Assembly: GCA_964360585.1 (NCBI GenBank)
Contig: CAYHXC010000001.1
Location: 87,907 to 141,204 of the forward strand
Length of the DNA: 53,298 nt
Source of the DNA: an uncultured Candidatus Saccharibacteria bacterium
GTDB lineage: Bacteria; Patescibacteriota; Minisyncoccia; UBA6257; 2-01-FULL-56-20
Direction: 5' to 3'
Under the pieces are notes generated by a model. That model made no database searches, was not told the origin of the DNA, and was given only the letters and a program-made list of their open reading frames with translations. The number at the start of each line of letters is the position of its first letter. The stretch's first letter is position 1. This document shows positions 28,818 to 51,302 of this stretch, in pieces. The position numbers and the translations under genes were made by a program.

Positions 28818-29273
28818 CTATCGAGTAATGCTAATGGTTGAACTTTGTTCGGCGCTTGGAGCAGAAACGGTTAACCGGCCATTTGATGATTTGGAAATAA
28901 AATAACCTGTCCCGCTTGCGGAAACCGCTATCGGGTCGGTCGGAAGAGAAACGAGATATTTCTGACTGGCGGCTAAAACATCGGTGAGGTTGGTGAGCGA
29001 GCCGCAACTGCTGGTCGCGATCGTGGAACGGCAAATTTCAACGAGTGTCGTACTCACGGTCGTTGGCAACGTGCCATTATTATCAATCGTATACTGATAA
29101 ACCGCGTTTAAAATGGTATTCACGTCCACGCGCCGCTGGGCATTTCTCGTGTCACCAAGCTGTTTATTGGGGTTAATGGCCAGAATGACAATGCCCGCCA
29201 AAATAGCGATGGCCGCGACGACGAGGAGGATTTCGATCAGGGTAAATCCCTTTTTACTTTTTACGAGTTCCAT
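28818..29273 (-). CDS. Type IV major pilin-like protein 2
   Basis: MELVKSKKG|FTLIEILLVV; start refined to 29273 (TAATG overlap with the upstream pilin). Confidence 0.9.
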   Translation of the reverse strand: MELVKSKKGFTLIEILLVVAAIAILAGIVILAINPNKQLGDTRNAQRRVDVNTILNAVYQYTIDNNGTLPTTVSTTLVEICRSTIATSSCGSLTNLTDVLAASQKYLVSLPTDPIAVSASGTGYFISKSSNGRLTVSAPSAEQSSTISITR

Positions 29274-29749
29274 TAGCGGGAAACTGAAATTGTCTGTCCC
29301 TGTTCGGCCGCCGGAGCGCATACGGTTATGCGATTCGTCGTAGCGCTTTTCCAAACATAATAGGCGGTGCCGTTGGTGGTTGAACTGCCGGGATCAAGCG
29401 GCATCGAGACAAGATATTTTGCCGTGCTCGTTACTAAATAGGTGCTTAAGTCGGTGAGTCCCGTGCACACTCCTCCGGTTTTACAGATTTCCTGGCCAGA
29501 CACGCTCCCGCAGGTCGCACCGGTTGAAGTAACCGTCGTTGGCAAGTTGCCATCGTTATCCAATGCGTACTGGTAGACCCCGTTTAAAATCGTAGTCACA
29601 TCGGCCGAACGCTGGGCGTTTCTCGTGTCACCAAGCTGTTTATTGGGATTAATGGCCAGAATGACAATGCCCGCCAAAATAGCGATGGCCGCGACAACCA
29701 AAAGGATTTCTATAAGGGTAAACCCGGACCGCCCATGTGTTTTATTCAT
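29273..29749 (-). CDS. Type IV major pilin-like protein 1
   Basis: MNKTHGRSG|FTLIEILLVV...AINP.KQL..RNAQR. Confidence 0.92.
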   Translation of the reverse strand: MNKTHGRSGFTLIEILLVVAAIAILAGIVILAINPNKQLGDTRNAQRSADVTTILNGVYQYALDNDGNLPTTVTSTGATCGSVSGQEICKTGGVCTGLTDLSTYLVTSTAKYLVSMPLDPGSSTTNGTAYYVWKSATTNRITVCAPAAEQGQTISVSR

Positions 29750-29806
29750 ATCTCTATTTTAATAAGAAACCACGACAATCGCCAGTAAAGTTATCGACAG
29801 CCAGTC

Positions 29807-29985
29807 AGCCCCCATCTCAAAAATATATCCAGTCGCGATAGAGGAGAATTTAGAGGAAGACCAGGAATAACAACGAAGGTGTGCCCTGAGGCACAACGAG
29901 GAGGAAATGACACCGTCTTCCTCTAAATTCTCCCTATCCTTCGGTTCCAAGGGAACGCGGCGGAGCTATTTTTGAGATGGGGGCT
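29807..29985. mobile_element. MITE-like structured element, family B, copy 1
   Basis: Perfect 19-bp terminal inverted repeat AGCCCCCATCTCAAAAATA; perfect internal 19-bp stem; homologous to 43981-44265 in the opposite orientation. Confidence 0.75.
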
Positions 29986-30392
29986 TAATCGGCCACCTCC
30001 TGCCAGGACGAGATGGTAATCAAAGGAGTTATGGCGCTCACCGAAACGCGAGCGCGACGGACAATCGTGCCGACAGTGCCGGTGGCCATAACAGTCCGGC
30101 TTTGGCCGCCATCATTCGTCACACTGTACTCGCACGAACCTTCGCTTTGCGTCGAAGTGCCGTTCCCCGTAAACGAAGTGACGTCGCGAATCTGCTGCAG
30201 GCCTTCCTCAATGCAGAGGTGAGCCATGGCCCGAGCAGTGGCTGACTGCTGATAAGCAAAACTGGAACGGGAAGAACCAAGGCCAAGCCAGATGAGTGAG
30301 GTGGCGACTCCCACGGTCACCGCGCCGACCACCAGCACGCTCACGAGCGTGATATAACCGCCTTCTTTCGCTATGTGCATTTTGCTATTCAT
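29985..30392 (-). CDS. PilX/GspK-like minor pilin
   Basis: KEGG|YITLVSVLVV lacking Glu5; A...A..CIEEGL; C-terminal SWQEV. Confidence 0.8.
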   Translation of the reverse strand: MNSKMHIAKEGGYITLVSVLVVGAVTVGVATSLIWLGLGSSRSSFAYQQSATARAMAHLCIEEGLQQIRDVTSFTGNGTSTQSEGSCEYSVTNDGGQSRTVMATGTVGTIVRRARVSVSAITPLITISSWQEVAD

Positions 30393-30938
30393 TTAAGGAA
30401 ATCGGAGCGCGGCGCTCCCGTAAAAAGTTTTACTGAAAGTATACTCGCTTTTTCCCGTCGAAGTGACGTGCTGTATCGTAAATTGAATTTGGACAACCCC
30501 GGGCGTGCTGGTTCGGGAGAAATTCGAAAAAAGAAGATCGGAAACAAGTATCCGGTTATTGGTGAGCGCAACGGGCGGCGTGGTACTTTCGATGATTTGC
30601 ATAACCGACTCAGCGAGATTAAACACGGTCGGCGTAGTGGTCGCAGCGTACGTTGCTAATGTTAGTGTTGAAGAGGTAGTACTGGTCGCGGGACCAACGA
30701 TGCTTGCGGCATTTCGGACGGTCTGGGTAATTATTTGCATCGCCTGCAGTCCCTGCTGTTCTACTTCCGCAATCGTCTGATTTTTCACGCGCGACTCTAA
30801 AAGTGTTCCGAGAAAAACTGAAATCGAAAGAAGCATGATCGATAACGTCGCCACATAAAGGAGGAGTTCAATCAGTGAAAACCCCCTCACCTCATGCATA
30901 TTTTTTAATTTGGGAAAAGAATTGAAATTGATATTCAT
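30393..30938 (-). CDS. PilW/GspJ-like minor pilin whose leader is supplied by an inserted element
   Basis: VRG|FSLIELLLYV. The ancestral start is probably the ATG at 31003 (MNRNNSGF). Confidence 0.85.
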   Translation of the reverse strand: MNINFNSFPKLKNMHEVRGFSLIELLLYVATLSIMLLSISVFLGTLLESRVKNQTIAEVEQQGLQAMQIITQTVRNAASIVGPATSTTSSTLTLATYAATTTPTVFNLAESVMQIIESTTPPVALTNNRILVSDLLFSNFSRTSTPGVVQIQFTIQHVTSTGKSEYTFSKTFYGSAALRFP

Positions 30939-30979
30939 ACAAGGAGAAAAACTTGGTTGAATGTTTGAGGTGTGGGGGT
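30881..30979. mobile_element. ~100-bp TIR element (family A) at the prepilin cleavage site, copy 1
   Basis: TIR ACCCCCACACCTCA / TGAGGTGAGGGGGT (13/14); ~83% identical to 49269-49368; removing it plus a 2-bp TT duplication restores MNRNNSGFSLIELL. Confidence 0.8.
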
Positions 30980-31004
30980 AAAACCGGAATTATTTCTATT
31001 CATA

Positions 31005-32759
31005 TTAAAATCGTGAGAAGGAGAACCAAAAGGGGTTGTTTACTGCTTGCGGCAGTGTTGTCTCGAGCGCCGCTCCATCGGAATTCGTCCAGGTAAAGGT
31101 CGCGGGTGCGGTTAAGACTAATCGCTTGGCAAAAAGATCGTTATTGCTATCGGAAAAGAGATACATGAGCTGATTTTTGTTCACCGGATTCATCTCAACG
31201 AACTGCGTTCGCCGTAGATTAGAACCGCCCGGAGAAATAGTTATGTCTGCTTGGGGAGTGAATGTGCCGCCATTCCCAAGATACCAGTTGATCGCGTTTG
31301 AATTATTGTCTCCGTAGACTACGACCGATCTTGTTGTTCCGCCGTCTACTACCCAGCCGGTTGCCACATGCTTTGAAGCGGCCACGGGCGTACTGCACGA
31401 AGTATCGGCATTGGCGGTGTTGGCCCAAGCCGAACCGCTCCAACGCCCGAACTGCAAGTCGCTTCCGGCGTTGCCAATGGAAGCAAAAACTATTTCGTCG
31501 GTGTTGGGATTGGCGGAGATATCAAGATTGGTGGCGTCGTCGGAAAATGTCGGAGGCGTGGTGACTGCGTTCCAGGTGCACGCCGAAGTTCCCCCGGTGC
31601 AGGTTCGATATCTCACGCCATTCGTGCCGTTTGCTCCGGCTGAGTTGGCCCAGACCACCATCACATCACCCGAAAGTGATTCGTATTCGATATCAAAATC
31701 CTCAATATCCTGGGCGAGAGAAACGATCTCAAGCGAGGTTTCGGTCGCGGCCGTTGGTTCATTGCCCCACGTTGCACCATTCCAGATCATGGCCGAAAGA
31801 TCACGGTTTGCATCAGCCCAAACGGCGGCAATAAGGTTTTGGCCCGCTCGCCTGTCCCAAGCCATCCTGACCCAATGGATGAGGCCGGACGTCCGCACGG
31901 GATTAAGACTGTTTACTCCCGACCAGTTCCCTGAACCGCATCCGGTCGTTCCCAATTTCGTTCGATAGGCGAGCTCGTTGGTCGTTGTCGCGGCGCTTCC
32001 ATAGAGCACCATCACATCACCGGAGTCCGTTTCATAGGCTATGTTGAACGGACGGGAAGCTACGGGACCGCCCACCGTCGCTGTCCACTCCTCTGTCCAG
32101 TCGGCGCCGTCATAACAAAAAACGCGAAGTTCGCCGGTTGAAGTAAATAATCCGGCCACTGCCTCAGAGCTGGTGGGTGAAACGCGAACAATAAATGAGC
32201 GGCCGCTCGCCGAACTGACGGTTGATGATTCTGCGGAAAAAGTATTGAGACTTGTATCATATGTCCTGAACTTCGGCGCTGTCGTACCGTCTCCATAGAT
32301 AAGAATATGATTGGGCACGAGGCCGGACGCCAGCCAGTTTGTAAATCGCGTGACCAACTGCACAATGCCGGTCCGCTGATTATTCTGCTGCCAGGTAACA
32401 GTCGAGGTAACGTGTTTGCGTTTGTCGTCAATCGCGCTAATCGCGATCTGCCGCGTAAAAATATCGATCGTGTTTGATGTCCCCGATAGATTCCAATAAT
32501 TACTCGTCGTCGCCAAGCCATACGTGCCGTCCACGAGATTAACGAAGCCAGCGTCGCGAATACTTTCTACGGCTTCCAGTCCCTCCTCGGCGAGCATCGA
32601 CGCGCGCGCCCGACTTCCCGCGAGCGCGGTAGACTCCTGGCCGTAAAGGTACACGCCGAGAAGCGCGGTCACGATCAAAGCGAAAATAGAAGCGGCGAGG
32701 AGCACTTCCACCACCGAAAATCCTCCCTGCTTATTAATACGTGACTGTGCCTTTCGCAT
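31005..32759 (-). CDS. PilV-like minor pilin fused to a ~440-aa Trp/Thr/Asn-rich beta-structured (adhesin-like) domain
   Basis: KQGG|FSVVEVLLA and A..LAEEGLEAV motifs; repeated W.G..W blade-like motifs. Alternative start at 32783. Confidence 0.82.
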   Translation of the reverse strand: MRKAQSRINKQGGFSVVEVLLAASIFALIVTALLGVYLYGQESTALAGSRARASMLAEEGLEAVESIRDAGFVNLVDGTYGLATTSNYWNLSGTSNTIDIFTRQIAISAIDDKRKHVTSTVTWQQNNQRTGIVQLVTRFTNWLASGLVPNHILIYGDGTTAPKFRTYDTSLNTFSAESSTVSSASGRSFIVRVSPTSSEAVAGLFTSTGELRVFCYDGADWTEEWTATVGGPVASRPFNIAYETDSGDVMVLYGSAATTTNELAYRTKLGTTGCGSGNWSGVNSLNPVRTSGLIHWVRMAWDRRAGQNLIAAVWADANRDLSAMIWNGATWGNEPTAATETSLEIVSLAQDIEDFDIEYESLSGDVMVVWANSAGANGTNGVRYRTCTGGTSACTWNAVTTPPTFSDDATNLDISANPNTDEIVFASIGNAGSDLQFGRWSGSAWANTANADTSCSTPVAASKHVATGWVVDGGTTRSVVVYGDNNSNAINWYLGNGGTFTPQADITISPGGSNLRRTQFVEMNPVNKNQLMYLFSDSNNDLFAKRLVLTAPATFTWTNSDGAALETTLPQAVNNPFWFSFSRF

Positions 32760-33180
32760 TGATGCTGATGATTCTCGTTTCATCGCTGGGTGAGATTAAA
32801 GCGGTACTGCCGGAAGCAACGGGAAATCCGGTGAGTTTCGAAAAAACATACTCCACCGTTCCGGATACCGCCGATAACGCCAAGGGGTACACCTCATCGA
32901 CGCTCGTTGCCCGTCCGGCATAACTCGTCCCTTGGAAAATCGTAAGGCTGGTCGTGGTCACCTGGATTCCCCAACTGACACTGCCGTCCATTGCTTGGGA
33001 AAGCATCTCTGCCCGCCGCGCGCTCTGCGCCATCATTGTTGCGGCAATATCCAATTCGTTTCTGGTCTCAAATGAGTGGTAGACCGGAACGCCGATCCCC
33101 GCCAGGATGGCGATGGCCGCGACGGAAAGTATAATTTCCACCAAAGAAAATGCTCGGCAATCGCGAGTAAATTTCCTCAT
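32734..33180 (-). CDS. FimT/GspH-like minor pilin
   Basis: RA|FSLVEIILSV; C-terminal ISINAKG. Confidence 0.82.
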   Translation of the reverse strand: MRKFTRDCRAFSLVEIILSVAAIAILAGIGVPVYHSFETRNELDIAATMMAQSARRAEMLSQAMDGSVSWGIQVTTTSLTIFQGTSYAGRATSVDEVYPLALSAVSGTVEYVFSKLTGFPVASGSTALISPSDETRIISINAKGTVTY

Positions 33181-34286
33181 GGGTTCGTCTGTAGTCCGCC
33201 GATAAGGCTATATATAGGAAGGACGACCGCGAGCGCCACCCCGATTACCCCCAGCCAAACGATGACGAGAAGGATCGGTTCGAGAATAATCGCGAGATCT
33301 TTAGCGGTTGTGTCCGCCTTGGCCTCATAGTCTTCGCCGATCCGGATTAAGGTCGCCGACAGCGTCCCCGACTGCTCGCCGGCGCTAATCAACTGCTGAA
33401 CTGTGGCTGGTAGGAGTTTTCCGGATTTTTTATACAACGCGAAATTCTTGCGAAAAGAATTTCCGTCACTCACGCCGTCGTGCAAAAAACGGTAGAATTT
33501 TCGATACCGATAAAACGGCGTGGCCTGTGACAGTGAGTCGAGCGCGTCGGTCGGCGGCAAGCCGGCGGAGATTAACGATCCCAAAAGATATCCCATGCGA
33601 GCGATCTCCGTTTCCCGACTCAACTTCCGCACGCCTGGTATGCAAAAAATAATATACTCCCCGATAACGCGCGTTTTGGAAAAAGAAAATGTGAAATATA
33701 AAAACGCGCCGATAAAAATGATGAAACCCGGCACGGCGTAGATGCCATACTCGCCCAGAAACAAACCGAAACGGATAAGCATATCGGTGATGAACGGCAA
33801 CTGTATTTTCATCTGCGAAAAAACCATGGCCAACTTCGGCAAGATAAACCAAGCGATACCGGCGCCGATAATAAGGGTGAGCGACAGAACAAAAACCGGA
33901 TACATGGCCGCCGAACGAAGCTTTGACCGCAAAACTCGTTCCTTCTTCTGTTCAACGGCAATCACTTTCAGGTTTTCCACCAAACGGCCGGACCGCTCCC
34001 CCGCCCGAATGAGCGAAGCAACATGCGGAGAAAAAAGTCCGGTATTTTCCAATCCGGCGGACAGCGACTGGCCAGCCTCGATCTCGACAGTCAGTTTTTG
34101 CGCAATTTTTTTGAGCCGATAAGAACGGATCTCCTTGTCCACGGCAGTCAGAGCATCGAGAATAGGGATTCCCGAGGCGAGAAGCGAGCTCAAATTTTCC
34201 AGAAAAAAATCACGCTCTTCGCCGATTCCAAAATGGGAGAACCGAGATGGCTTTTTTTGTTTTCGCGGCGGATTCGTTTTGGGCAT
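33177..34286 (-). CDS. pilC: Type IV pilus / T2SS inner-membrane platform protein (PilC/GspF)
   Basis: LL.SGIPILDAL, AGERSGRL, AMYP, AGEQSGTL and LEPIL motifs. Confidence 0.93.
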   Translation of the reverse strand: MPKTNPPRKQKKPSRFSHFGIGEERDFFLENLSSLLASGIPILDALTAVDKEIRSYRLKKIAQKLTVEIEAGQSLSAGLENTGLFSPHVASLIRAGERSGRLVENLKVIAVEQKKERVLRSKLRSAAMYPVFVLSLTLIIGAGIAWFILPKLAMVFSQMKIQLPFITDMLIRFGLFLGEYGIYAVPGFIIFIGAFLYFTFSFSKTRVIGEYIIFCIPGVRKLSRETEIARMGYLLGSLISAGLPPTDALDSLSQATPFYRYRKFYRFLHDGVSDGNSFRKNFALYKKSGKLLPATVQQLISAGEQSGTLSATLIRIGEDYEAKADTTAKDLAIILEPILLVIVWLGVIGVALAVVLPIYSLIGGLQTNP

Positions 34287-40591: not shown

Positions 40592-40658
40592 TTACTCTAT
40601 TTTCCTATATCCTTTGATCCAAGCTGCGGGAAAAAGTCGAGGAAACAAACAATGCCTC

Positions 40659-40703: not shown

Positions 40704-40708
40704 TCATT

Positions 40709-41032
40709 ATGTCCGATCTTATTATTGGTAAAGGAAATTTAACTGGGAAAGGAGTCTACGCTGGCCGAGATTTCAAGAAAGGTGAGGTCGTTAGTAAATA
40801 CAGTCTTAAGGAATTAACGGAGAAAGAGTACCAAAAACTACCAGAAAGTGAAAAAGTGTTCACGCATTATCACTGGGGGGTCATATACCTTTATTTGGAA
40901 CCGGATAGGTACGTGAACCATTCAGAAACACCGAACACGCATCAGGACCATAAAAATCAGTGCGACGTCGCCGCGCGAGACATCAAAAAAGGAGAGATGA
41001 TTACCTGCGACGCCACAAAGGATGACATTTAA
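40709..41032 (+). CDS. SET-domain protein
   Basis: GKGVYA.RDFKKGEVV, RYVNHS..PN and AARDIKKGEMITCD motifs; start refined to MSDLII. Confidence 0.85.
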   Translation: MSDLIIGKGNLTGKGVYAGRDFKKGEVVSKYSLKELTEKEYQKLPESEKVFTHYHWGVIYLYLEPDRYVNHSETPNTHQDHKNQCDVAARDIKKGEMITCDATKDDI

Positions 41033-41037
41033 ATTTC

Positions 41038-41604: not shown

Positions 41605-41713
41605 GGATATCAAAATGGTGAAAGATTATCTTGCCAGGAACTGAGCTCTAGGTTTTAGAATTTATATACATATTTGACTCCTACTCCCAGCAGACTAAAA
41701 TGAGGCAACTGTT

Positions 41714-41947
41714 ATGAATATAGGGGAGACGCACAACAAGCATTTATTATGGGTTCTAGAGAAGATCTACAAAGAATCCTTAATAACCCGTAAAGATTCT
41801 CCTATAGAATATTGGATCAACTTCGACAATTTAAATAAGAACGATGAATCTCCTAACCCCCGAGAAGAAGCGAAACTACTGGAGAAATGCGAAGAAATGG
41901 GACTGATTCAAATATTAAACAGAGGCGGAACATGGGAATATGAATAA
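41714..41947 (+). CDS. Hypothetical protein (possibly the N-terminal part of a split gene)
   Basis: AT-rich 77-aa ORF after promoter copy C; overlaps the next ORF by 8 nt. Confidence 0.5.
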   Translation: MNIGETHNKHLLWVLEKIYKESLITRKDSPIEYWINFDNLNKNDESPNPREEAKLLEKCEEMGLIQILNRGGTWEYE

Positions 41948-42332
41948 GTTGTATAAAATAAAAATTATTAACACAAAATTCGAGGCGCACTATACATCTT
42001 TAAAATCTCTTTACCCCTCGGAGAAGAAAACTGAAAGCCTTTCCCCTACCCTAGAAGGAAACCTGTACTCGGGTATATCTATTAACGCAAAAAATATTGA
42101 AAACAACGGCTTAATAACTGGACCCTTAGTAGATATAACTACAAATAATTACTCAGGCAGTGGTGAAATTTCAAGTTTTCCAAAACACAAGAATCCAGAA
42201 CCCAAACAAAATTTCCTTGAGAGAATAACTAACAATCAAACTTTTGCCATGGTTGCAGGCACAGTGATCGCGCTTTTGACACTGTATGCTATATACCATT
42301 ATTTCGGAGTGAACCTTTCTCAATTTAGTTAG
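41940..42332 (+). CDS. Hypothetical protein with C-terminal TM segment
   Basis: AT-rich 130-aa ORF. Confidence 0.55.
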   Translation: MNKLYKIKIINTKFEAHYTSLKSLYPSEKKTESLSPTLEGNLYSGISINAKNIENNGLITGPLVDITTNNYSGSGEISSFPKHKNPEPKQNFLERITNNQTFAMVAGTVIALLTLYAIYHYFGVNLSQFS

Positions 42333-42352
42333 AAGATTTTTAATAATCCTAA

Positions 42353-42955
42353 ATGTTCAAGGCAACTTTGTTTGATGTGGATGGCGTAGTGCTTCAACCG
42401 AGAAAAGAGTTCTTCAGCTTGAAGTTCGCGCGAGAGCAAGGGATTCCCAAAGAGGCGGTCGAGGAGTTTTTTCTTGGAGACTTCAAGAAATGTCCTCTCG
42501 GTCAGGGTGATTTAAAAGAGCTGATCACTCCCTACCTCCCTAAATGGAAATGGGATAAGGGTGTCGATGCATTTCTGAAATACTGGTTCGACAGCGAGAA
42601 CGAGAAAAACGAGGAGGTGCTTAAGTTAGTCGCCGATCTGCGTAGCAAAGGCATTAAGTGCTACTTAGCTACTCAACAGGAAAAGTATCGGCTCCAGTAT
42701 CTTCTCGATACTATCGGTCTTAAAAACTACTTCGACGGCGCGTTCTCTACCTGCGAGGTTGGGTGCGAAAAAAAACAACCGGAGTTCCATATGTTTGTTT
42801 TAAAAAAACTTGGCCTTAATCCTTCGGAAATTCTCTATTTCGATGACAATGAGAAAAATATTCAAACAGCTCGCCAGCTCGGCATTGAGGCTTATATATA
42901 TGAAAACTTGGAAACATTAAAACAACAAACGAATCAAGGATCTTATCCCTCATAA
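42353..42955 (+). CDS. HAD-superfamily hydrolase (subfamily IA)
   Basis: LFDVDGV, LAT, K..PE and YFDD.EKN...AR.LGI motifs. Confidence 0.9.
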   Translation: MFKATLFDVDGVVLQPRKEFFSLKFAREQGIPKEAVEEFFLGDFKKCPLGQGDLKELITPYLPKWKWDKGVDAFLKYWFDSENEKNEEVLKLVADLRSKGIKCYLATQQEKYRLQYLLDTIGLKNYFDGAFSTCEVGCEKKQPEFHMFVLKKLGLNPSEILYFDDNEKNIQTARQLGIEAYIYENLETLKQQTNQGSYPS

Positions 42956-43004
42956 AAATATATAGGTGTTTGCCTCTTTAATTTGGGAGTTTTATCATGT
43001 TTAT

Positions 43005-43406
43005 ATGAGACATATAGAATCATACCAACCAGATACTAACCGAGAAGTAGAAGAAAATGAGATCGAAGAGGCGCTCCACAACGCTGGTCTAAACTTAAAA
43101 GCTCCCCGTCCAGAAACCGAGGCATATAAGCGGCTTTATGCGGCGGCTGAAGAATACATGCGATCTGTACTGAACCACGGCAAAGCAAGTATTCCTCCGC
43201 AATTCCGTCCGGACGGAGAAAATTACTTCCGGCCAAAACCAAAAATGATTAACCCTGCAGAGGATATCCGGCGTGAACATCACAATACCTTAGCGAAATT
43301 ACTATTCGGGAAACCCGTTAATGAATTGCCACGTGCAGAGCGAGACAAAATCAGTAATTTTTCCGCTTATCTCACCGGACACGTCGATTATGTCGACCAG
43401 TGGTAA
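43005..43406 (+). CDS. Hypothetical protein
   Basis: Start refined to MRHIES, 6 nt after TATCAT, with TTGCCT 17 nt further upstream. Confidence 0.65.
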   Translation: MRHIESYQPDTNREVEENEIEEALHNAGLNLKAPRPETEAYKRLYAAAEEYMRSVLNHGKASIPPQFRPDGENYFRPKPKMINPAEDIRREHHNTLAKLLFGKPVNELPRAERDKISNFSAYLTGHVDYVDQW

Positions 43407-43423
43407 GCTCTACGGGTTGGTTG

Positions 43424-43452
43424 ATATGTCCCCTCTCCTTACATTAGCCACC
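43424..43452. repeat. 29-bp direct repeat, copy 1 (copy 2 at 44365-44393)
   Basis: ATATGTCCCCTCTCCTTACATTAGCCACC vs ATATGTCCTCTCTCCTCACATTAGCCACC, 27/29 identical. Confidence 0.85.
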
Positions 43453-43491
43453 CGTCTTGCTCATGATGTTTTTTCATGCTAGATTCAGCAC

Positions 43492-43689
43492 ATGTCTCAT
43501 CAGATTGCAACAATATCAAAAAAGGTAAGCGGTGGGGAAGAGCTCATCGTCGTGAAGAAGAAGGACTTCGAGCAGTTTATGAAATGGCAGGAAGAGATGC
43601 GCGATGTTTTGACCAAGGTGCGGCGCGGCCGCGCAGAGTATCGAAGTAAAAAAACGATCGTAGCGGATTCACCAAAAAGATTTCGGTAA
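43492..43689 (+). CDS. Putative type II antitoxin
   Basis: 65 aa, immediately upstream of the RelE-like toxin; own promoter TTGCTC-17-TAGATT. Confidence 0.7.
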   Translation: MSHQIATISKKVSGGEELIVVKKKDFEQFMKWQEEMRDVLTKVRRGRAEYRSKKTIVADSPKRFR

Positions 43690-43697
43690 TTTCTGAT

Positions 43698-43964
43698 ATG
43701 GGTGGAATCAACGTCATCCATTATACTTCGGACTTCCGTAAGGCGTACAAGAAGTTGCCTCACGAGATACAAAACACGATCGACCGAAAAGACAAGATTT
43801 TTCGTGGAAATCCTTTTCAGCCTAGTCTAAAGACGCACAAGCTCCACGGTCCATTGAGTGGTCTGTGGTCATTTTGGATTACGCGAGACTATCGAATTCT
43901 TTTTGAATTTGTAAAAGACGGCGCAATCTTTCACGATATCGGAACACACGAAATATACCGATAA
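43698..43964 (+). CDS. Type II toxin, RelE/StbE/YafQ-like mRNA interferase
   Basis: F.KAYKKL, F..NPF.PSLKTHKL.G.L.G.WSF.I..DYRI.F and DIGTHEIY motifs. Confidence 0.88.
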   Translation: MGGINVIHYTSDFRKAYKKLPHEIQNTIDRKDKIFRGNPFQPSLKTHKLHGPLSGLWSFWITRDYRILFEFVKDGAIFHDIGTHEIYR

Positions 43965-43980
43965 CTCCAGATAAAGGTGT

Positions 43981-44265
43981 AGAACTCATCTCGAAAATAG
44001 CTCCGTCGCGTTCCCCTTTCGTTTCTCCGTCCATCAAGGCACGACCTGCCGGCAGGCAGGCGAGGAGACATAGGCCTGAGTCTAGGCTCCGAGGAGTAAC
44101 GAAGATGGCGGAGAAACGAAAGAGAACCGGAAGGATAGGAAATACCCTGGCGGAGACATTGTTCCTGCGTTCTCGATGTACCGTTGGGTACACCTTCGAA
44201 CTGGCGCCTCGTCTTCGCCAGGGTATTTCACTATCGCGACAGGATATATTTTTGAGATGAGTTCT
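43981..44265. mobile_element. MITE-like structured element, family B, copy 2, with a nested hairpin module and palindrome
   Basis: 18/19-bp TIR AGAACTCATCTC(G/A)AAAATA with TA at both edges; minus strand is collinear with 29807-29985; CCTGCCGGCAGGCAGG at 44045-44060. Confidence 0.75.
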
Positions 44266-44366
44266 AGTCAGAAAAAGTGCTACCCAAAAAGTCATCGAGA
44301 ACTTGAAGTAAGACGATCCGGAGGCTGATTTAATAATCAAACGATCAACAGCCTAGTACGCAATAT

Positions 44367-45047
44367 ATGTCCTCTCTCCTCACATTAGCCACCGATCCAC
44401 ATCAGTACGAAGGTGTCGACGGTAAAAACTGGCAAGACACTGCCGTCGATGCGGCTTCACCTCGGAATCGTCTCTATCTAAAATACTTGGAAGGAATAAA
44501 TTGGCACGGGAAAAAGATTCTGGATGTCGGTTCAGGAACCGGTTGGCTTTATCCTCATCTCATGCAAACGGGCGCAACATCTGTGCGCGGCATCGAACCA
44601 GCTCACAATCACGTCGCCCTATCGCGAAAAAATCATCCGGAGTTTGAAGTTTTTGAAGGCACGCTCGATGAGTATGAAACAAACGAACAGTTCGACGCGA
44701 TTCTTTTTATTATGGTCCTCGTTCATATCGGAGATATTGGAAAAACGTTCGAGAAGGCATCACAACTCCTTTCACCAAGCGGAAAGATAATCGCTATGGT
44801 GACACACTTTTACGAAAACTCAGAAACGCGCGCCAAGCGAAATGGCAAAGAATACGACGTTGAAATCATTGATGATAACCAGTACACCGATAAAGCCAGG
44901 GCGCCAGGATCCGTAACGGATATTGTCCGTCGGATAAAATATTATGAACGTATCGCCCCTCAACACGGGTTGATCCTTTCTGAACATACGGAGTTCGCTG
45001 AAGAAAATCACTCCCCGAAACATTTACTTGTTTTCAATAAAAAATAG
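44367..45047 (+). CDS. Class I SAM-dependent methyltransferase
   Basis: ILDVGSGTG, GIEP, FDAI...MVLVHI and L.P.G motifs. Confidence 0.85.
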   Translation: MSSLLTLATDPHQYEGVDGKNWQDTAVDAASPRNRLYLKYLEGINWHGKKILDVGSGTGWLYPHLMQTGATSVRGIEPAHNHVALSRKNHPEFEVFEGTLDEYETNEQFDAILFIMVLVHIGDIGKTFEKASQLLSPSGKIIAMVTHFYENSETRAKRNGKEYDVEIIDDNQYTDKARAPGSVTDIVRRIKYYERIAPQHGLILSEHTEFAEENHSPKHLLVFNKK

Positions 45048-45113
45048 ACGCCTTTACAACCGCCTCTAATAGGAGGAAAATCCTGGTAGTTATCTGACAT
45101 AAGGAGGCTACGC

Positions 45114-46334
45114 ATGAGAAACCGTTGGTCTGTGGTTTGTCTCTTCGCCTTTCTTCTCTTTGCACCTCTCGCCGCTCACGGACAGAAAGTATCTCTTGAT
45201 GAGGTGTGGTGGAAACTTTCCGAAGAACCGTGCCTGCGCTCGATTGTGGAAAAACGGGATGCAGAGCTGGGTATGCTCATCTATCTTCTCCATAGTCGTC
45301 ATCGCTACCACTACCCGCTTCGTGATTTTTGCTTTAACGGCAAATCGTTTACACGGGAAGAAATTCAGGGCTTCATGGACAAGTGGTCGTACATCAAAGA
45401 AAAGAAAAAGAAAACTCGCTCATCGCCGCCCACGTTTAATCTCAGGTTTATGGTGGTCGATGGCCTGCCCCTTCTCATTTATGTTGACCGAGACGGCCCC
45501 GCTTTCGAAGCTGGTCTTCGACGTGGCGATCTTCTCATGAGTCTGGACGGCACGCGCTTCAGAGGAATGAATCAGGCTCTAAAACTATTTTCCCTTCCGC
45601 CAGGAAGAGTGGCAACGATCGCATTCTGGAGAGATGGGATTACGCGCCACACTGAGGTCGACACTCGCGTTTCCCGAACGCCGACCTATCGAATGTACCG
45701 GTTTGGATCCTACGTCTATCTCGAAGTGAACGAACTCCGTATGGATTACCAAAGAATTCGACACGACCTTCGGCGCGCCTACCTCGACTTTCCTTTTAGC
45801 GGCATCATTCTGGATTTTCAGGGCTGCATCGGAGGATACGTGTACGAGGCTGAGCTCGTCAGCGGATGGTTTCTTGGTGACACAACGAACTATCTTGAAA
45901 CCGTACCGACCAAGAACACTTACTTCCAAGAGGTGCAGACGCTTACCATCAAGGACCATCTCCTCGAACAGACCCTCAAATCAGTACCTCTTGTAGTATT
46001 GGTCAGTAGGGACACTTTCTCGGCTTGCGAGATTATCGCGGGAGCAGTTCAACATCATAAGCGGGCGCTCCTTATCGGCAGTCGAACAGGTGGCAAAGGA
46101 ACGATCCTCACTCCATTTGACTGGACTGCGGGAAGAAAACTATTCCTCGCTACTTCCCTTTGGTACACTCCCAACGGAACCACTGTTGAAGATCGCGGAC
46201 TAGATCCTGACCTTGGTCCGGAAAGCCATCCTGAGGTAATTGAGAAATTCCGTAATACTTGCGATGATGCCTGTGATCTTCTGGAGCACCCGGAGATGCA
46301 GACTGCTTTCTACCTGCTTGATCGTATGCAGTAA
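45114..46334 (+). CDS. S41 family C-terminal processing peptidase (PDZ + S41), secreted
   Basis: Signal peptide, GPA.EAGLRRGD (PDZ), VLVS..TFSACE (Ser), GSRT.GKG (Lys) and WYTPNG....GL.PD motifs. Confidence 0.85.
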   Translation: MRNRWSVVCLFAFLLFAPLAAHGQKVSLDEVWWKLSEEPCLRSIVEKRDAELGMLIYLLHSRHRYHYPLRDFCFNGKSFTREEIQGFMDKWSYIKEKKKKTRSSPPTFNLRFMVVDGLPLLIYVDRDGPAFEAGLRRGDLLMSLDGTRFRGMNQALKLFSLPPGRVATIAFWRDGITRHTEVDTRVSRTPTYRMYRFGSYVYLEVNELRMDYQRIRHDLRRAYLDFPFSGIILDFQGCIGGYVYEAELVSGWFLGDTTNYLETVPTKNTYFQEVQTLTIKDHLLEQTLKSVPLVVLVSRDTFSACEIIAGAVQHHKRALLIGSRTGGKGTILTPFDWTAGRKLFLATSLWYTPNGTTVEDRGLDPDLGPESHPEVIEKFRNTCDDACDLLEHPEMQTAFYLLDRMQ

Positions 46335-46338
46335 AACC

Positions 46339-46366
46339 AAAACCCACTTTTCCAAGTGGGTTTTTT
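46339..46366. terminator. Bidirectional terminator
   Basis: AAAACCCACTT-TTCC-AAGTGGGTTTTTT between convergent genes. Confidence 0.85.
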
Positions 46367-46367
46367 A

Positions 46368-47648
46368 TTATGCCTGTCGTTGAGGACGCGGCGAGGGATA
46401 CGGCGAAGGACGACGTCCGCGAGAACTGCTTCTGTTTCCTTGAAATCGAGACTGGCCATACGGACGACTGGCCTGTGGGCGGGATGAAGGAAAACGCGGA
46501 CGAAATTCGCGCGTCGGTAATGGCGTGGCGCGATGGGGCGGCAACTCTGGGAGTCTCGTGGGCGGCAAGGTTACTCGAATTAGTCGTTCGATATCTCGGA
46601 TATCGCTTTTTTGATCCGGCGTGGCAAATGACACGGCGTGTCCGGCGGCGCCGGCTCGAGCTGTTCGGCCGATACGATGGACATAATCGTCGGGACTCGA
46701 TGGCAGGTCGTAGTTCACCACCAGTTCAATTCCTTTGACATCAATTCCCCGCGCGGCGATATCGGTGGCCACAAGAATCCGATACCGGCCATTCCGAAAA
46801 CCATCGAGTGCTTCTCGTCGCTGATTCAATGATTTATTGGAGTGGAGTTCAGTCGTCGTGTGGCCCAGCACGCGAACACCGGCAGAGATCCGTTTGGCGC
46901 CAAATTTTGTCCGCGAGAAAACGAGAACCGAACCCCGATACTCCGAAAGAAGTTTTTCCAGCAATCGCGGTTTGTCCTGTTTGGCCAGAAAGAAAACTTC
47001 CTGCGTCACTTTGGCGCTGGCGGTGCCCGGCGGCGCAATCTCGATCCGAATCGGTAGCTTCATATATGAATGAGCGAGTTGGACAATCGCGTCCGGCATG
47101 GTCGCGGAAAAAAGCATTGTCTGGCGTTCTTTGGGAACAGTCATGAGGAGTCGCTTCAGCTGCGGCGCGAATCCCATATCGAGCATCCGGTCAGCTTCGT
47201 CCAAAACTAAAATTCCCACCTGACTTAAGGAAAGTGTTTTCTGTTCTAAATGATCGATCATCCGGCCTGGCGTTCCAATAATAATTACAGGATTGCTCCG
47301 GAGTTGGGACAGCTGGCGCGACATCGACTCGCCGCCAACCAAAAGCACCGTGCGAATGCCGAGCGGCGCGCCGATTTTGTGAAATGTTTCCTTAACCTGT
47401 AGCGCCAGTTCGCGCGTCGGCAAAACCACTAATCCCCGCTTGCCGCGAAGCGCCGCTTGAATCATCGGAATACCGAAAGCCAGGGTTTTCCCTGTTCCCG
47501 TCTGGGCCAGACCCATTAAATCCTTTCCTTCCACCGCCTGCGGAATGGATTTCTGCTGAATCGGGGTCGGTGTTGTAAAATTCAACTTATCAAGAATCGC
47601 CAGGATATTTGGCGCAATGCCAAGGCCATAGAAGTTCGGATCAGACAT
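46368..47648 (-). CDS. rhlE: DEAD-box RNA helicase (RhlE-like)
   Basis: Q motif, AQTGTGKT, PTRELA, TPGR, DEAD, SAT, ARGID and HRIGRTAR motifs; Arg/Ser/Pro-rich tail. Confidence 0.9.
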   Translation of the reverse strand: MSDPNFYGLGIAPNILAILDKLNFTTPTPIQQKSIPQAVEGKDLMGLAQTGTGKTLAFGIPMIQAALRGKRGLVVLPTRELALQVKETFHKIGAPLGIRTVLLVGGESMSRQLSQLRSNPVIIIGTPGRMIDHLEQKTLSLSQVGILVLDEADRMLDMGFAPQLKRLLMTVPKERQTMLFSATMPDAIVQLAHSYMKLPIRIEIAPPGTASAKVTQEVFFLAKQDKPRLLEKLLSEYRGSVLVFSRTKFGAKRISAGVRVLGHTTTELHSNKSLNQRREALDGFRNGRYRILVATDIAARGIDVKGIELVVNYDLPSSPDDYVHRIGRTARAGAAGHAVSFATPDQKSDIRDIERLIRVTLPPTRLPELPPHRATPLPTREFRPRFPSSRPQASRPYGQSRFQGNRSSSRGRRPSPYPSPRPQRQA

Positions 47649-47709
47649 AGTGCCTAGACTATACTACACCTTTACCGCCTTTAATAGAGCTGACGGAAGA
47701 TTATGTTGA

Positions 47710-47966
47710 CTAAGTTGCATCCCAACTCCGCATCGTATCTATCTCCCAAGATTGCGACGTTATGATCTGGTCGGCCAGATTTTTCATTTCTTCTTGGTCG
47801 GTTGTCGCTCCAAGCATTTGCGCCATCATGTTCCCCGTTCGTAAGCCGCTATTCCGATAAAAACCTTTCATCATCGAACCACCTCCCCATCCTTCCAAGA
47901 GAAGCGGCGCGATAAGAATGCCGATGGTTACACCGCCAAACCAATAATAATGTTTTCTTTTTTCAT
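47710..47966 (-). pseudogene. DUF305 (CopM-like) pseudogene with a frameshift and a large internal deletion
   Basis: MKKENII, then a frameshift, then GGVTIGILIAP..GWG..MM.GFYR fused directly to MMAQML..EMK.LADQII.SQS.EID.MRSW; matches both ends of 9887-10489. Confidence 0.85.
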
Positions 47967-47970
47967 ATTG

Positions 47971-48351
47971 TTATCTAAACCATCCCTTTATGGTTTTTGG
48001 CCACCCGATCAAGAAGAGTAAGGCAAGCGGCGCGCCCCAATTAGCCGAACGCTCGACGAAATCCCAGATCGGCATACCGACGATCGGACGGATAAGCGCC
48101 GTCCAAAATCCCCAAAACGTCATCCAGAGAAGGACTGCTCGCACAGGTCGGATAAGGATGAGGATGGCAAGAAGAATATCCAACAATCCGACAAAAAATA
48201 AAATCTGGGCGGCCACTGTCGTGTCACTAACACCGAATGTACTAAACCATCCGATCCAATCTTTTTTTCCTTGCAAGGCAAAGACTCCGTGACCAATGAA
48301 CTCGCCAGCGACCGCAATCCGCAAAATCCATTCTGCTGTTTTATTATTCAT
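47971..48351 (-). CDS. DoxX-like membrane protein
   Basis: WILRIAVA.EFIGHG, three to four TM segments, WDFVER.ANWGAPLAL. Confidence 0.7.
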   Translation of the reverse strand: MNNKTAEWILRIAVAGEFIGHGVFALQGKKDWIGWFSTFGVSDTTVAAQILFFVGLLDILLAILILIRPVRAVLLWMTFWGFWTALIRPIVGMPIWDFVERSANWGAPLALLFLIGWPKTIKGWFR

Positions 48352-48612
48352 GTTTTAAAAAATTAATTTTGTTAGGCAATGAATCGACCTGAGTATCTCC
48401 TCCTATGAGAAGATCCCTGTACATTGCTCTTTCTTACATTATACCTCATCGCCCATCCAGCACATTAAGTATTTTACTGGTGAAATTAAAAACTCCGAAG
48501 TTTTGATCTTCGGAGTCAGTTGACTAGAACCTCCTCTCCCCAGCCGGCTCCTTCTTTGTTTATGAAATTTCTCTGTTTTTGAGATGGGTTCTGGTGTAGT
48601 AGAATAAGGGGG

Positions 48613-49212
48613 ATGAGTAAAAACCTCGCCATCTCCATTCTGGTTGCCATTGTTGTCGGCTTAGGAGCCTACTTTTTCTTCGGCCAGCCGATGTTGTTTA
48701 CTATTCAGTCTCCAATAGTTATTTCACGCGAAGAAATTACGCCAAAACCATTTGATCCTTTGAATGCTACATACTCGATCGACGAAGAAGCATTCACACT
48801 TACGAATGGAAAATCGGAAACGGAACTGGTGCCAGGGTCGGCCATAAAAGACGAAATCGAGACTTTTGGTAAAGCGATACTTGGTGATCTTGATCGCGAT
48901 GGAAAAGATGATGCTGCAATTCTCTTCATGGAAAACTCCGGCGGAACGGGGATATTTTATTATGTGGCTGCGGCTTTGCGTACGAGCAAAGGAGCTCTCG
49001 GCACCAATGCCATTTTCCTCGGCGACCGTATTGCACCGCAAACGTTGGAGATACGAAATAACATCATTATCGTGAACTACGCTGATCGCAAAGAAAACGA
49101 ACCGATGGCTGCCCAACCTTCAGTTGGCGTAACAAAATATTTTGTGGTCTCCCAGAATATTCTCCGCGAAACAGAAAATATTCCTCAGCCGAACGAAACA
49201 GCTGATCAGTAA
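48613..49212 (+). CDS. Membrane-anchored conserved hypothetical protein
   Basis: N-terminal TM; DP.NATY.I, GDLDRDG.DD and SGGTGIFYYV..LGDRIAPQ motifs. Confidence 0.75.
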   Translation: MSKNLAISILVAIVVGLGAYFFFGQPMLFTIQSPIVISREEITPKPFDPLNATYSIDEEAFTLTNGKSETELVPGSAIKDEIETFGKAILGDLDRDGKDDAAILFMENSGGTGIFYYVAAALRTSKGALGTNAIFLGDRIAPQTLEIRNNIIIVNYADRKENEPMAAQPSVGVTKYFVVSQNILRETENIPQPNETADQ

Positions 49213-49241
49213 CCCAAACCACCCGTCATGCCTTCAGTTTC

Positions 49242-51302
49242 GTGGAGTCTCGAAAAACAGTTGGTTTCGCCCCCGCACCTCAAAAAATTCAACCAAGTCT
49301 TTCTTCTCGTATGAATACCCCTTTCGATTCTTTTCCCAAATTGAAAAGTACGCATACGGTGAGGGGTTTCACACTGGTTGAACTTTTAATACTCATAGCC
49401 CTTATTGCGACTTTAAGTGTTGTTGTTCTTCTGATTCTAAATCCCGCCGAGCAATTCAAAGCCGCCCGCGATTCACGACGACTCAGTGATCTGAATACTG
49501 TAAACCGGGCCTTGAGTATTGTTGAAGCCGTAACCCAAAACCCCTCGCCCGGAAGTTCAAGCATTGTGTACGTCTCGCTTCCTGATTCTGATTCTCTCTG
49601 CGGTAGCTATGTCTTGCCGAGTTTACAAATTGGCTGGATGTACCACTGTTCCCCGTCTTCAACCTACCACGCGGCTGATGGTTCGGGCTGGATCCCGGGT
49701 AATTTTTCGGCGACAGCAAACCAGGCGCTCGCCACCCTTCCCGTTGATCCAGTAAATATGGCGACTGGATCGCTTTACTACACCTACGTTCGCGGCGGCA
49801 GTTGGGAACTTTCCGCCACGATGGAATCGAATAAATATAAAAATCTCACGACTTCGGATAACGGCGATGACTCGACTGTTTTTGAAGCTGGCACGGATCT
49901 TTCCTTGACCCCGCTTCGCGTTACCAGTTCGATCGCCACCCGCAACTGGCGCTACTGGCCGTTTAGCCAGACTTCTCCCTGGAACTATCCGATCGGAAGC
50001 GGCGCAACCTACGCCACAGTTCCTGGACTGTCATTACTGCCGACTACATTTAACACCGGCGGTCGATGGACGGCTTCGATTATTATCGCGACTACAACCG
50101 ATCCCCTCACAACTCTGTACTACACGCCGGGCAGTGGACCGTCATCAACGTTCGCTTTTTTGGCAGGCGGCGGCGCGAACTGCGGCAACAGCGGTGGAAC
50201 GGAAACGACAATCATGACCTGGACTTCGACTGGTCTCCCTGCTGACGGCAATTATTACTCCACCCTCTCCACACCAGACGACACGCAGTGGATTCTTCCC
50301 ACGAGTTATCACAAGTCCTACGAAGATTACGTTCACCAAATGAAAATGCCTTCGAGCGCCTGCCCTTCGCCGGACTCCGATGGCCTGATGACCGTGATTC
50401 AACCTGACGGCTGGGCCGTTGATACGTATGCAACGATTGTTCTCTCCGGTAATCGCGTGGTCGCAACTATGGGCAGTTACATTGACACACGCGGCTCGGG
50501 CATCGGCTGGTGGAATGGCCGCCGCGCCAGTATGTTCCCATCGTTCGCCGGCATTATCCGCACCGGCGAAATTGCGAACGGTCTCATTCCCCACGCGCTT
50601 ATCGCCCAAATGCCCCCATCGATTTTAACCGAGCAAGCAATCTGGCCGGCGTACACGTTTGATCGAACCTCTGGTTACACTGGAACTTTGCCAATGGGCG
50701 CGCTTCTCGCCATTCCTTCTTCAACCGATATCAATACACTCGGCCTCACCACTCAAGGAAAAGTGGTGGCCAAAGCGGCGCAGGACTACGGTGTCTACGC
50801 CGGCGATCGCGGCGGGAGCGGCATCGCGATTCTCATGGAGTACGGCAATCCTGATATCTGGCCGAACTCGTATCTGGATCTTCAAAAAATTCGCGATGTG
50901 CTTCGTTGGGTGACGAACAATGATTCGACCAATCGTGGCGGGGGCGGTACACCGCTCGCTTCGTTCCCCCCGCCGTTTTACGATGGTTCGACTGCGTCAA
51001 TATCGCCAACACCGGACTCAACCGCGCCAACTGTTCCAACCAATCTTACCGCCACCACTCCCGCCTGCAATCAAGTGAAGCTTGACTGGAACCCCTCAAT
51101 CGATAGCGGTATCTCCGGACTAAAAGGCTACACAATTTACAAAAATGATGTTTTCTTGAAAAAAATCAGTGCTCCCGAACTCACGACGATCGCCGGCGGT
51201 CTCATCAAAAACTATCCGTACATTTTCGGCGTCTCTGCGATTGATAACGCCAATAACATTTCAGCCACCACAACCGCAAACATCACCACGCTTGATTGTT
51301 AA
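49242..51302 (+). CDS. Orphan type IV pilin fused to a ~340-aa domain of unknown function and a C-terminal FN3 domain
   Basis: VRG|FTLVELLI...LNPAEQ...ARDSRRLSDL; PFS..SPWN.PIG, G.IPHAL, WPA and AAQDYG.Y..DRG motifs; APT.PTNL.A FN3. Alternative start at ATG 49311. Confidence 0.85.
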   Translation: MESRKTVGFAPAPQKIQPSLSSRMNTPFDSFPKLKSTHTVRGFTLVELLILIALIATLSVVVLLILNPAEQFKAARDSRRLSDLNTVNRALSIVEAVTQNPSPGSSSIVYVSLPDSDSLCGSYVLPSLQIGWMYHCSPSSTYHAADGSGWIPGNFSATANQALATLPVDPVNMATGSLYYTYVRGGSWELSATMESNKYKNLTTSDNGDDSTVFEAGTDLSLTPLRVTSSIATRNWRYWPFSQTSPWNYPIGSGATYATVPGLSLLPTTFNTGGRWTASIIIATTTDPLTTLYYTPGSGPSSTFAFLAGGGANCGNSGGTETTIMTWTSTGLPADGNYYSTLSTPDDTQWILPTSYHKSYEDYVHQMKMPSSACPSPDSDGLMTVIQPDGWAVDTYATIVLSGNRVVATMGSYIDTRGSGIGWWNGRRASMFPSFAGIIRTGEIANGLIPHALIAQMPPSILTEQAIWPAYTFDRTSGYTGTLPMGALLAIPSSTDINTLGLTTQGKVVAKAAQDYGVYAGDRGGSGIAILMEYGNPDIWPNSYLDLQKIRDVLRWVTNNDSTNRGGGGTPLASFPPPFYDGSTASISPTPDSTAPTVPTNLTATTPACNQVKLDWNPSIDSGISGLKGYTIYKNDVFLKKISAPELTTIAGGLIKNYPYIFGVSAIDNANNISATTTANITTLDC
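49269..49368. mobile_element. ~100-bp TIR element (family A) at the prepilin cleavage site, copy 2
   Basis: GGTTTC is duplicated 102 bp apart (49263 and 49365); homologous to 30881-30979. Confidence 0.8.

Follow-up and report, generated by a model that had tools for sequence, protein, structure and literature searches.

Gene-less hairpin elements at the cleavage codon of two unrelated prepilin genes in a Candidatus Saccharibacteria genome: a probable case of repeated insertion

Two unrelated prepilin genes share a segment at one codon

The DNA analysed here, referred to as the window, is a stretch of 53,298 nucleotides (nt) from an uncultured Candidatus Saccharibacteria bacterium, a tiny groundwater member of the Patescibacteria (NCBI GenBank assembly GCA_964360585.1, contig CAYHXC010000001.1, positions 87,907 to 141,204 of the forward strand). 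It contains a small type IV prepilin gene on the minus strand and a giant one on the plus strand, and each carries a copy of the same hairpin element at the codon for its predicted cleavage site. These copies (copy 1 in the small and copy 2 in the giant pilin gene) were recovered in a repeat search of the window as its sole inverted repeat of 40 nt or longer, with arms at 30865-30966 and 49283-49384 that are 102 nt long, 83% complementary and spaced 18316 nt apart. The features at the two loci are listed below in window coordinates, with a slash marking the predicted cleavage point.

30980..31003, minus strand: relic leader ATG AAT AGA AAT AAT TCC GGT TTT, MNRNNSG/F (sequence read)
30881..30979, minus strand: copy 1, hairpin element of 99 nt, ACCCCCACACCTCA to TGAGGTGAGGGGGT, terminal stem intact
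30935..30938, minus strand: ATGA, in which the TGA stop of the relic frame overlaps the ATG borne by the element (sequence read)
30393..30881, minus strand: coding region of the mature small pilin, FSLIELLL..., including the stop (open reading frame, ORF)
49242..49268, plus strand: short leader of native type, GTG..GGT TTC, M-ESRKTVG/F, in frame with the insert (ORF 49242..51302)
49269..49368, plus strand: copy 2, hairpin element of 100 nt, GCCCCCGCACC to GGTGAGGGGTT, terminal stem decayed
49311..49367, plus strand: element-borne ATG and 19-codon substitute leader MNTPFDSFPKLKSTHTVRG, ending in Gly(-1) (from alignment with the ATG at 30938)
49368..51302, plus strand: coding region of the mature giant pilin, FTLVELL..., including the stop (ORF)

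Aligned end to end, the two copies are identical in 83 of 100 columns, and an earlier sequence-only reading, which had described an approximately 83% identical copy 18 kb away on the opposite strand, is thus borne out. When the loci are aligned with their flanks, the likeness begins at GGTTT (49263 on the plus strand and 30985 on the minus strand) and stops at GAACT, just within the FxLxELL codons, and the flanks on both sides are unalike. The likeness between the mature pilins is confined to their first 23 residues, 11 of which are identical, in agreement with the claim that the two proteins are otherwise unrelated. Homology reaching into the flanking genes would have pointed to a segmental duplication, and neither the flanks nor the mature proteins share it. 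Within the giant pilin gene, GGTTTC is present twice, 102 nt (34 codons) apart, at 49263-49268 and 49365-49370, and the ORF from the GTG at 49242 (686 codons) is open through both; the duplicated hexamer and the in-frame insert had both been read correctly. The internal ATG at 49311, said to be conserved, does pair with the ATG at 30938 of copy 1 in the alignment.

The two genes cope with the segment in different ways. Element and duplication together measure 101 nt at copy 1 and 102 nt at copy 2, and this difference of one base keeps the giant pilin in frame and puts copy 1 out of frame. At copy 1 the relic-leader ATG lies 1 nt past the stop of the preceding gene, and the ATG within the element opens a prepilin ORF of 181 amino acids (aa) by way of a 19-codon substitute leader, MNINFNSFPKLKNMHEVRG. 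An orthologue of the small pilin (G086) has the leader MKKQKIKINSG/F without an insert, and the leaders of pilins related to the giant one are, like that upstream of copy 2, short and basic, with G or A as the last residue. Both pilins have Gly(-1), Phe(+1), Glu(+5) and a hydrophobic stretch of about 20 residues, and read VRG/FTLVELLILIALIATLSVVVLLIL and VRG/FSLIELLLYVATLSIMLLSIS. The 19-codon leader is the only reading frame within the two copies, which contain no transposase gene.

In the whole 1.08-Mb genome, copies 1 and 2 are the only blastn copies of the segment, the remaining four matches being of 14-19 nt with E values of at least 0.4. A blastn search of 125 genomes of the taxonomic family with a 122-nt segment gave only two 28-nt matches (G124), both due to chance on inspection. 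Exact-pattern scans returned one match in the species genome collection (by chance, in an archaeal metagenome-assembled genome) and 10 in metagenome contigs, all of them chance matches in AT-rich DNA. Outside this genome, these searches thus gave no member of the exact subfamily. No Rfam family matched anywhere in the window. A diversity-generating retroelement, with the arms as template and variable repeat, was considered and dropped because the repeat spans non-coding 5' sequence and has inverted ends.

The segments belong to a large family of hairpin elements

The ends of copy 1 form a terminal stem of 13 pairs with one mismatch, and the predicted DNA fold, with its ends paired, has an energy of -14.5 kcal/mol (z -2.67; 3 of 200 shuffled sequences fold equally well). 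The corresponding values for copy 2 are -9.1 kcal/mol, z -0.97 and 34 of 200, and an arm-pair search found no 3' arm at up to two mismatches. In view of this decayed stem, copy 2 is probably an immobile fossil.

A search of the 125 family genomes with the pattern GGTTTN{1,2}CCCCCRCAC gave 17 matches, compared with two for the reversed control, and all 17 correspond to the 5' end of a hairpin with ends ACCCCCACACC...GGTGTGGGGGT. A complementary 3' arm (up to two mismatches) is present in 16 of these, the exception being copy 2. The 16 hairpins with both arms are 30-139 nt long and have unrelated interiors. In 14 of them the 3' flank, which is not part of the pattern, begins TTAC, TTGAC, TGAC, TTAT or TTTCAC. 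The 5' and 3' flanks co-vary, in that four hairpins have GGTTTGAC left and right and another four likewise have GGTTTAC. The junctions of the family show a direct repeat of the GGTTT(N)AC type. A relaxed scan of the genome under study for the family with CCCCACACC-type ends gave 66 arm pairs (both strands), compared with six for the control, and these hairpins sort into subfamilies with one junction word each. The subfamily of copies 1 and 2 has four copies in the genome (C1 twice, C2, and C20). Family ends occur also at promoters, at other gene starts and in non-coding DNA. Copies 1 and 2 are thus gene-less members of a large hairpin family (foldback elements, similar to miniature inverted-repeat transposable elements, MITEs) and not a module specific to pilins.

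Two observations on other hairpins were made in passing. The commonest subfamily in this genome has ends ATCCCCACACCTAAT...ATTAGGTGTGGGGAT and a length of 126-137 nt (for example C1:3467-3592, C3:32608-32742 and C5:47833-47966), and almost every copy has (A)TGA to its left and GAA(A) to its right, so that the subfamily sits directly after TGA stops or at ATGAA words; it looks like the same logic with a different junction word. In two genera (L077, G086:C13, and L082, G016:C1), a 30-nt hairpin that shares its stem but differs in its loop is found at apparently the same locus, next to a conserved and possibly structured stretch (..TTTACGGCTCG..), and could be either an ancient insertion or a terminator that has been conserved.

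Sister copies have empty sites in the same genus

The two further members of the subfamily are recognised by alignment scores above those of shuffled sequences. The copy at C20:4037-4134, in the same sense, scores 85 (shuffle mean 63.5, standard deviation 6.3), and the copy at C2:47884-47980, antisense to copy 1, scores 87 (mean 66.8, standard deviation 6.4), which exceeds the maximum of 84 among 300 shuffles.

The C20 copy lies inside a promoter -35 box about 50 nt upstream of the gene for ribosomal protein S2, and its right end and flank read GGGGGT/TTACA (the slash here marking the element's end), followed by 17 nt and TATACT. In two genomes of the same genus the site is empty, with an unbroken GGGGTTTACAAAC or CCTTTACAAAT and then TATACT at an equal distance from the gene. 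These empty sites imply that the element entered the -35 box and restored it, with a net gain of the element's length and two T residues. The C2 copy lies in a third prepilin gene, which encodes a minor pilin present as a single copy in 112 of the 125 genomes and is located near the prepilin peptidase gene. The protein reads MNRIDYKNREG/F, then 31 residues, then GG/FTLIETL, with a 99-nt insert that is in frame throughout. The insert position is empty in 27 of 29 sampled orthologues, including two from the same genus (52-53% identity) with leaders MKKFLLQSRQG/F and ...TETRGG/F; of the other two, one (L157) has its own independent GC-rich hairpin and one a doubtful AT-rich pairing. As judged by these sequence comparisons, the C20 and C2 sister copies are insertions. 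The earlier proposal that the window segments arose by insertion is accordingly backed by direct repeats at the junctions, by the same-genus empty sites of the sister copies, and by the recurrence of hairpins at the same codon in other pilins.

Hairpins recur at the Gly-Phe codons of other pilins

We scanned 90 pilin loci, three of them from the genome under study, for hairpins in which the right arm runs up to the Phe(+1) codon. GC-ended hairpins were found at L010 (copy 1), L143 (the C2 pilin), L013, L059 (= L081), L064 and L157. The scan missed the decayed copy 2, and an additional locus, L085, was found by the pattern search instead; AT-rich 'hairpins' at L052 and L172 were set aside as probable chance pairings. 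In the genome under study an insert is thus present in three of 14 pilin-like N-termini, and five other genomes have a hairpin at the Gly-Phe codons (L013, L059, L064, L085 and L157), so that the loci come from six genomes in total and the pilins fall into at least four groups. Four or more different end sequences are represented in the five other genomes. L013, an orthologue of the small pilin, carries a different element from copy 1, and L157 has ends CCCCCACGCCAGAACGAG...CTCGTTTGGTGTGGGGG, the same 18-nt ends as cassettes encoding a GIY-YIG nuclease (see below). The expectation that other pilins would carry the element is therefore correct for hairpins at these codons, but not for the exact subfamily, which the searches found in this genome only.

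The pilin frame is open in all eight cases. The insert is in frame in four (copy 2, C2, L064 and L157), and in the other four (copy 1, L081, L085 and L013) it is out of frame, but the element itself supplies an ATG in frame with the pilin. In all eight, the codon before Phe is a Gly contributed by the terminal G-run of the element. One locus was left unscored because its right arm does not abut the Phe codon: at L053 (G005:C5), about 80 nt before that codon, A/FTLID is followed by a short GC hairpin (TCCCCG..CGGGGA) and then by G/FTLIELL, so that the first pilin codons are duplicated around a hairpin.

A small GIY-YIG nuclease is the candidate mobilising enzyme

The genome under study contains a 299-bp cassette (C5:26818-27118) with CCCCCACACC ends around an ORF for an 85-aa GIY-YIG protein. 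This protein matches PF01541 with 58.7 bits, its nearest solved chains are UPF0213 proteins (E 1.6e-7), and it has nothing above cut-off in NCBIfam. Small GIY-YIG genes of this type are present in 85 of the 125 family genomes, and inverted ends of at least 9 nt flank 23 of 30 GIY-YIG loci that were sampled from relatives. The resulting cassettes are mostly 277-311 bp long, with two of 325 and 343 bp and one of 442 bp. Ends of the CCCCACACC type occur in seven of the 23 (L100-L105 and L112), and one of these seven has the ends of this genome's commonest hairpin subfamily. These longer relatives with family ends encode only the nuclease of about 85 residues. We know of no GIY-YIG nuclease that acts as a bacterial transposase. 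As cassettes with the same ends as the hairpins enclose the gene, however, the nuclease is a candidate, by association, for the mobilising enzyme.

The window itself has a stand-alone GIY-YIG gene at 14161-14376 (plus strand; 85-aa frame, PF01541 63.4 bits), the flanks of which lack the CCCCACACC core. A GIY-YIG gene near a pilin gene (L022) was considered and rejected, as it lies about 250 nt upstream and divergent, and hence outside the leader.

Probable insertion at the cleavage codon, and the points on either side

The target of the subfamily apparently resembles its own joined ends, GGGT-TT-ACCC, with the TT duplicated, at least as read from the available junctions. A word of this kind is spelled both by GGN TTY ACN (Gly-Phe-Thr) codons and by a TTTACA -35 box preceded by G, and its presence in both would explain the repeated landing at the same pilin codon.

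We consider it probable that a single lineage of hairpin element inserted twice at the prepilin cleavage codon, where it is hidden by removal of the leader. Copies 1 and 2 would be two insertions of a non-autonomous foldback element with GC-rich inverted ends and variable interior, with the GIY-YIG nuclease of its longer relatives as the candidate mobilising enzyme. The element would integrate at a GGGT-TT-ACCC-like word and duplicate the TT, and its 3' G-run together with the duplicated TT would rebuild Gly(-1) and Phe(+1) in front of an untouched mature pilin, leaving the old start, leader and Gly-Phe codons upstream of the insert. Translation would then either read through, where insert plus duplication is divisible by three (copy 2, 102 nt), or start at the ATG within the element (copy 1, through the ATGA overlap with the relic-frame stop). 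Prepilin peptidase, a gene for which is present in the genome (PF01478, 49.7 bits), would cut off the whole leader, whether enlarged or substituted, and so yield a normal mature pilin; we infer this from the intact Gly-Phe and Glu(+5) residues and from what is known of class III signal peptides. An insert at this codon is probably tolerated because the leader is thrown away, such that the insertion would cost little and persist.

Several observations weigh against this explanation. No empty allele was seen for either window copy; the giant pilin has no close orthologue, and those of the small pilin (in nine family genomes, 40-52% identity) are at most 52% identical to it. The 2-nt duplication is read from one intergenic empty site, that of C20, where the upstream sequence has diverged. 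Both window pilins fall under the curated PF07963 (N_methyl) cut-off of 21.2 bits, the small one with 21.0 and the giant one with 16.3, their expression and processing are predictions only, and a promoter scan found no promoter-like site in 48500-49500. A start codon is visible in seven of the eight insert cases, that of L064 being lost at a contig end. The link to the GIY-YIG nuclease consists of shared ends of 11-18 nt alone, and among the 30 sampled loci no cassette lies in a pilin leader and no pilin N-terminus is found. Finally, the words GGTTTAC, GGTTTTAC, GGTTCAC and GGTTTCAC occur 285 times in the genome (both strands), and only about seven of these are at the Gly-Phe codons of the 14 recognisable pilin N-termini.

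Set against that last figure, three of the four subfamily copies are in pilins, and either a longer target or the loss of insertions elsewhere is needed to account for the difference. Insertions at such words in other coding DNA would be lost, whereas those in leaders and intergenic DNA would survive, and the enrichment in pilins may therefore be partly survivorship. The sequence-only reading had taken two insertions in the same codon context to imply sequence-specific targeting, and this part is supported, while some of the apparent preference for pilins may have the other origin.

Alternative explanations

If no mobile element were involved, the 5' untranslated region and leader of one pilin gene could have been transferred to the other, through gene conversion or as a small segmental duplication, and the upstream pseudo-leaders would be due to chance. 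The two copies are indeed each other's closest relatives (83 of 100), the 3' boundary falls within conserved FxLxELL codons that could supply homology, and the exact sequence was not found again in the family genomes, the species collection or the metagenome contigs. The 5' boundary, though, shares GGTTT alone, both upstream leaders resemble real ones (one being like the leader of an orthologue), the inverted ends are common to dozens of hairpins outside pilins, and the sister copies, one of them antisense in a third pilin, have empty sites in the same genus. We regard copying as very improbable.

The segment might instead be a selected cis-regulatory pilin module, made up of an upstream ORF and an RNA hairpin, or a pair of inversion sites giving phase variation. 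Such a module would fit the overlap of the upstream-frame stop with the new ATG in copy 1, which recurs at L081 as TAATG, and the predicted RNA fold of copy 1, which has its ends paired and a z-score of -2.96 that none of 200 shuffles equals; the inverted orientation of the copies would fit phase variation. We nevertheless consider both very unlikely. The stem of copy 2 is decayed, differences in the leader codons are mostly amino-acid-changing, the same ends are found at promoters and other gene starts, and the segment shares in the absence of Rfam matches from the window. Inversion of the intervening 18 kb, which had been suggested on the basis of the inverted homology, has no support: homologous recombination needs an identical run longer than 16 nt, and 16 nt is the longest exact run common to the two arms (read from the pairwise alignment), which are 83% alike. 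Contigs from seven public runs with this genome, from two studies, were available, and four runs were compared over 30300-49900. Among the contig joints listed for these four, there is none at either copy, inverted or otherwise; the listed contigs break off close to the elements, one beginning at 30970 and another stopping at 49135, for instance, and this comparison is uninformative on excised or inverted alleles.

That the hairpins are of the repetitive extragenic palindrome (REP/REPIN) type, moved by a single Y1 transposase (IS200/RAYT-type) and not by a GIY-YIG nuclease, we think quite improbable. Y1 enzymes act on DNA hairpins and pick targets by short sequences, the junction words are subfamily-specific, and one Y1_Tnp gene is present in the genome, outside the window (C1:47388-47753, 147-aa frame, 116.2 bits). 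That gene is flanked, however, by its own different GC-rich hairpins, with no CCCCACACC core within 1.5 kb, whereas CCCCACACC-ended cassettes enclose the GIY-YIG gene, and the arms of the elements pair with each other and do not form separate subterminal hairpins. Programmed translational bypassing, in which translation would skip the insert between the two matching GGN-UUY codon pairs, is scarcely credible. The insert is flanked by matched Gly-Phe codon pairs that the stem can bring together, in a formal resemblance to the take-off and landing codons of phage T4 gene 60, but copy 2, C2, L064 and L157 are simply in frame, and each of the four out-of-frame cases offers an internal ATG in frame with the pilin. 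No stop stands straight after the first Gly-Phe, that of copy 1 lying 14 codons further on, and the same elements occur in non-coding DNA. Repeated insertion of a hairpin element thus remains the explanation that we prefer.

Relation to known elements

Bacterial MITEs, such as the Correia elements of Neisseria, are short, multicopy sequences with terminal inverted repeats and without a transposase gene. Insertions of Correia elements lie within genes or beside them, are transcribed together with them, and can restore promoter or start signals. The hairpins described here are similar in that they are 30-140 nt long, gene-less and multicopy, have inverted ends and lie in or next to genes; they differ in their GGGT-TT-ACCC-like target with an apparent 2-nt duplication, and in that a GIY-YIG nuclease, which is not a known transposase, is encoded by the only longer elements to share their ends. 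IS200/IS605 elements have separate subterminal hairpins at their ends and are not known to make a target duplication. The REP/REPIN sequences with their RAYT enzyme, and the IS200/IS605 'peel and paste' elements, share with the present family the multicopy hairpin repeats and the target or junction words apparently carried along, as would be expected if a short specific sequence is recognised, but in this genome the hairpins surrounding the single Y1 gene are different ones. Part of this comparison follows the summary in PMC11893778.

The nearest system in the portion of the literature covered by our search is Ssn (Chenal et al. 2025, PMC11893778), and within that portion there were no hairpin elements in prepilin leaders and no GIY-YIG cassettes described as bacterial transposons. 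As described there, Ssn is a single-stranded DNA nuclease encoded by a stand-alone GIY-YIG gene of about 90 residues and associated with NTS/SRM hairpin repeats, which flank the gene and also occur as many gene-less copies; the authors note an architecture like that of an insertion sequence and hypothesise mobility. The likeness, as far as that description goes, is a small GIY-YIG gene between hairpin-forming repeats, together with gene-less copies. Comparing by motif and description, we find that the SRM motif fits none of five elements here and has four matches in the genome, compared with three to seven in shuffled sequences, and that the arms pair across the gene or interior, whereas each Ssn repeat forms its own hairpin.

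By analogy, inteins, self-splicing introns and bypass elements likewise hide the cost of a selfish insert through its removal before the mature product; here the removal would be by the host leader peptidase at a rebuilt site, with no activity of the element.

The pilin genes and other repeats in the window

Copy 1 is part of a larger locus.

28818..34286, minus strand: type IV pilus cluster holding copy 1, with several prepilin-like genes and a platform protein of the T2SS-F/PilC type

The platform protein gene (33177..34286) matches PF00482 with 173.6 bits, and PF07963 matches four further ORFs beyond the two window pilins. Two tandem paralogues in this cluster that resemble major pilins (29047-29249 and 29523-29725) are 83% alike over 203 nt and 476 nt apart; of their ORFs, 28818..29354 and 29273..29749 (both on the minus strand), the downstream one as listed starts within the upstream one.

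The first 200 or so residues of the giant pilin form a pilin domain with many paralogues across the taxonomic family. The C-terminal half is 50-57% identical to hypothetical proteins of about 390 aa from Binatia, Deltaproteobacteria and other bacteria outside the candidate phyla radiation (CPR), and the best foreign protein matches cover this half only; neither the metagenome protein scan nor the protein search found close relatives of the whole. From its sequence, the gene (49311-51302) looks like a fusion.

Two other sets of repeats were observed. A 64-nt direct repeat at 37816-37879 and 40640-40703 is 84% identical, contains TTGACT...TAGAAT, and possibly represents a duplicated promoter region. 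Three collinear repeat pairs with a spacing of 872 nt, at 23747-24190 and 24619-25062, point to a tandem gene duplication.

Implications

Repeated insertion would account for the sharing, by unrelated pilus genes, of 100 bases at exactly one codon, and would show a route by which a selfish element can sit in a coding region nearly free of cost. A broader proposal, which we put forward tentatively and regard as possible but doubtful, is that the hairpins and the 280-310-bp cassettes are undescribed, extremely small mobile elements driven by the nuclease of about 85 residues, of which one lineage uses the prepilin cleavage site as a safe harbour and leaves it to the host peptidase to remove its translated product. 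Intron or intein removal would thereby have a counterpart at the protein level that relies wholly on host machinery. If the link to the GIY-YIG nuclease is true, the family would be among the smallest autonomous mobile elements known and would offer natural pairs of hairpin and target word for studying or using sequence-specific nucleases. Pili are central to host attachment and DNA uptake in these bacteria, and long, odd or split prepilin leaders annotated in ultra-small bacteria may be insertions and not pilus biology.

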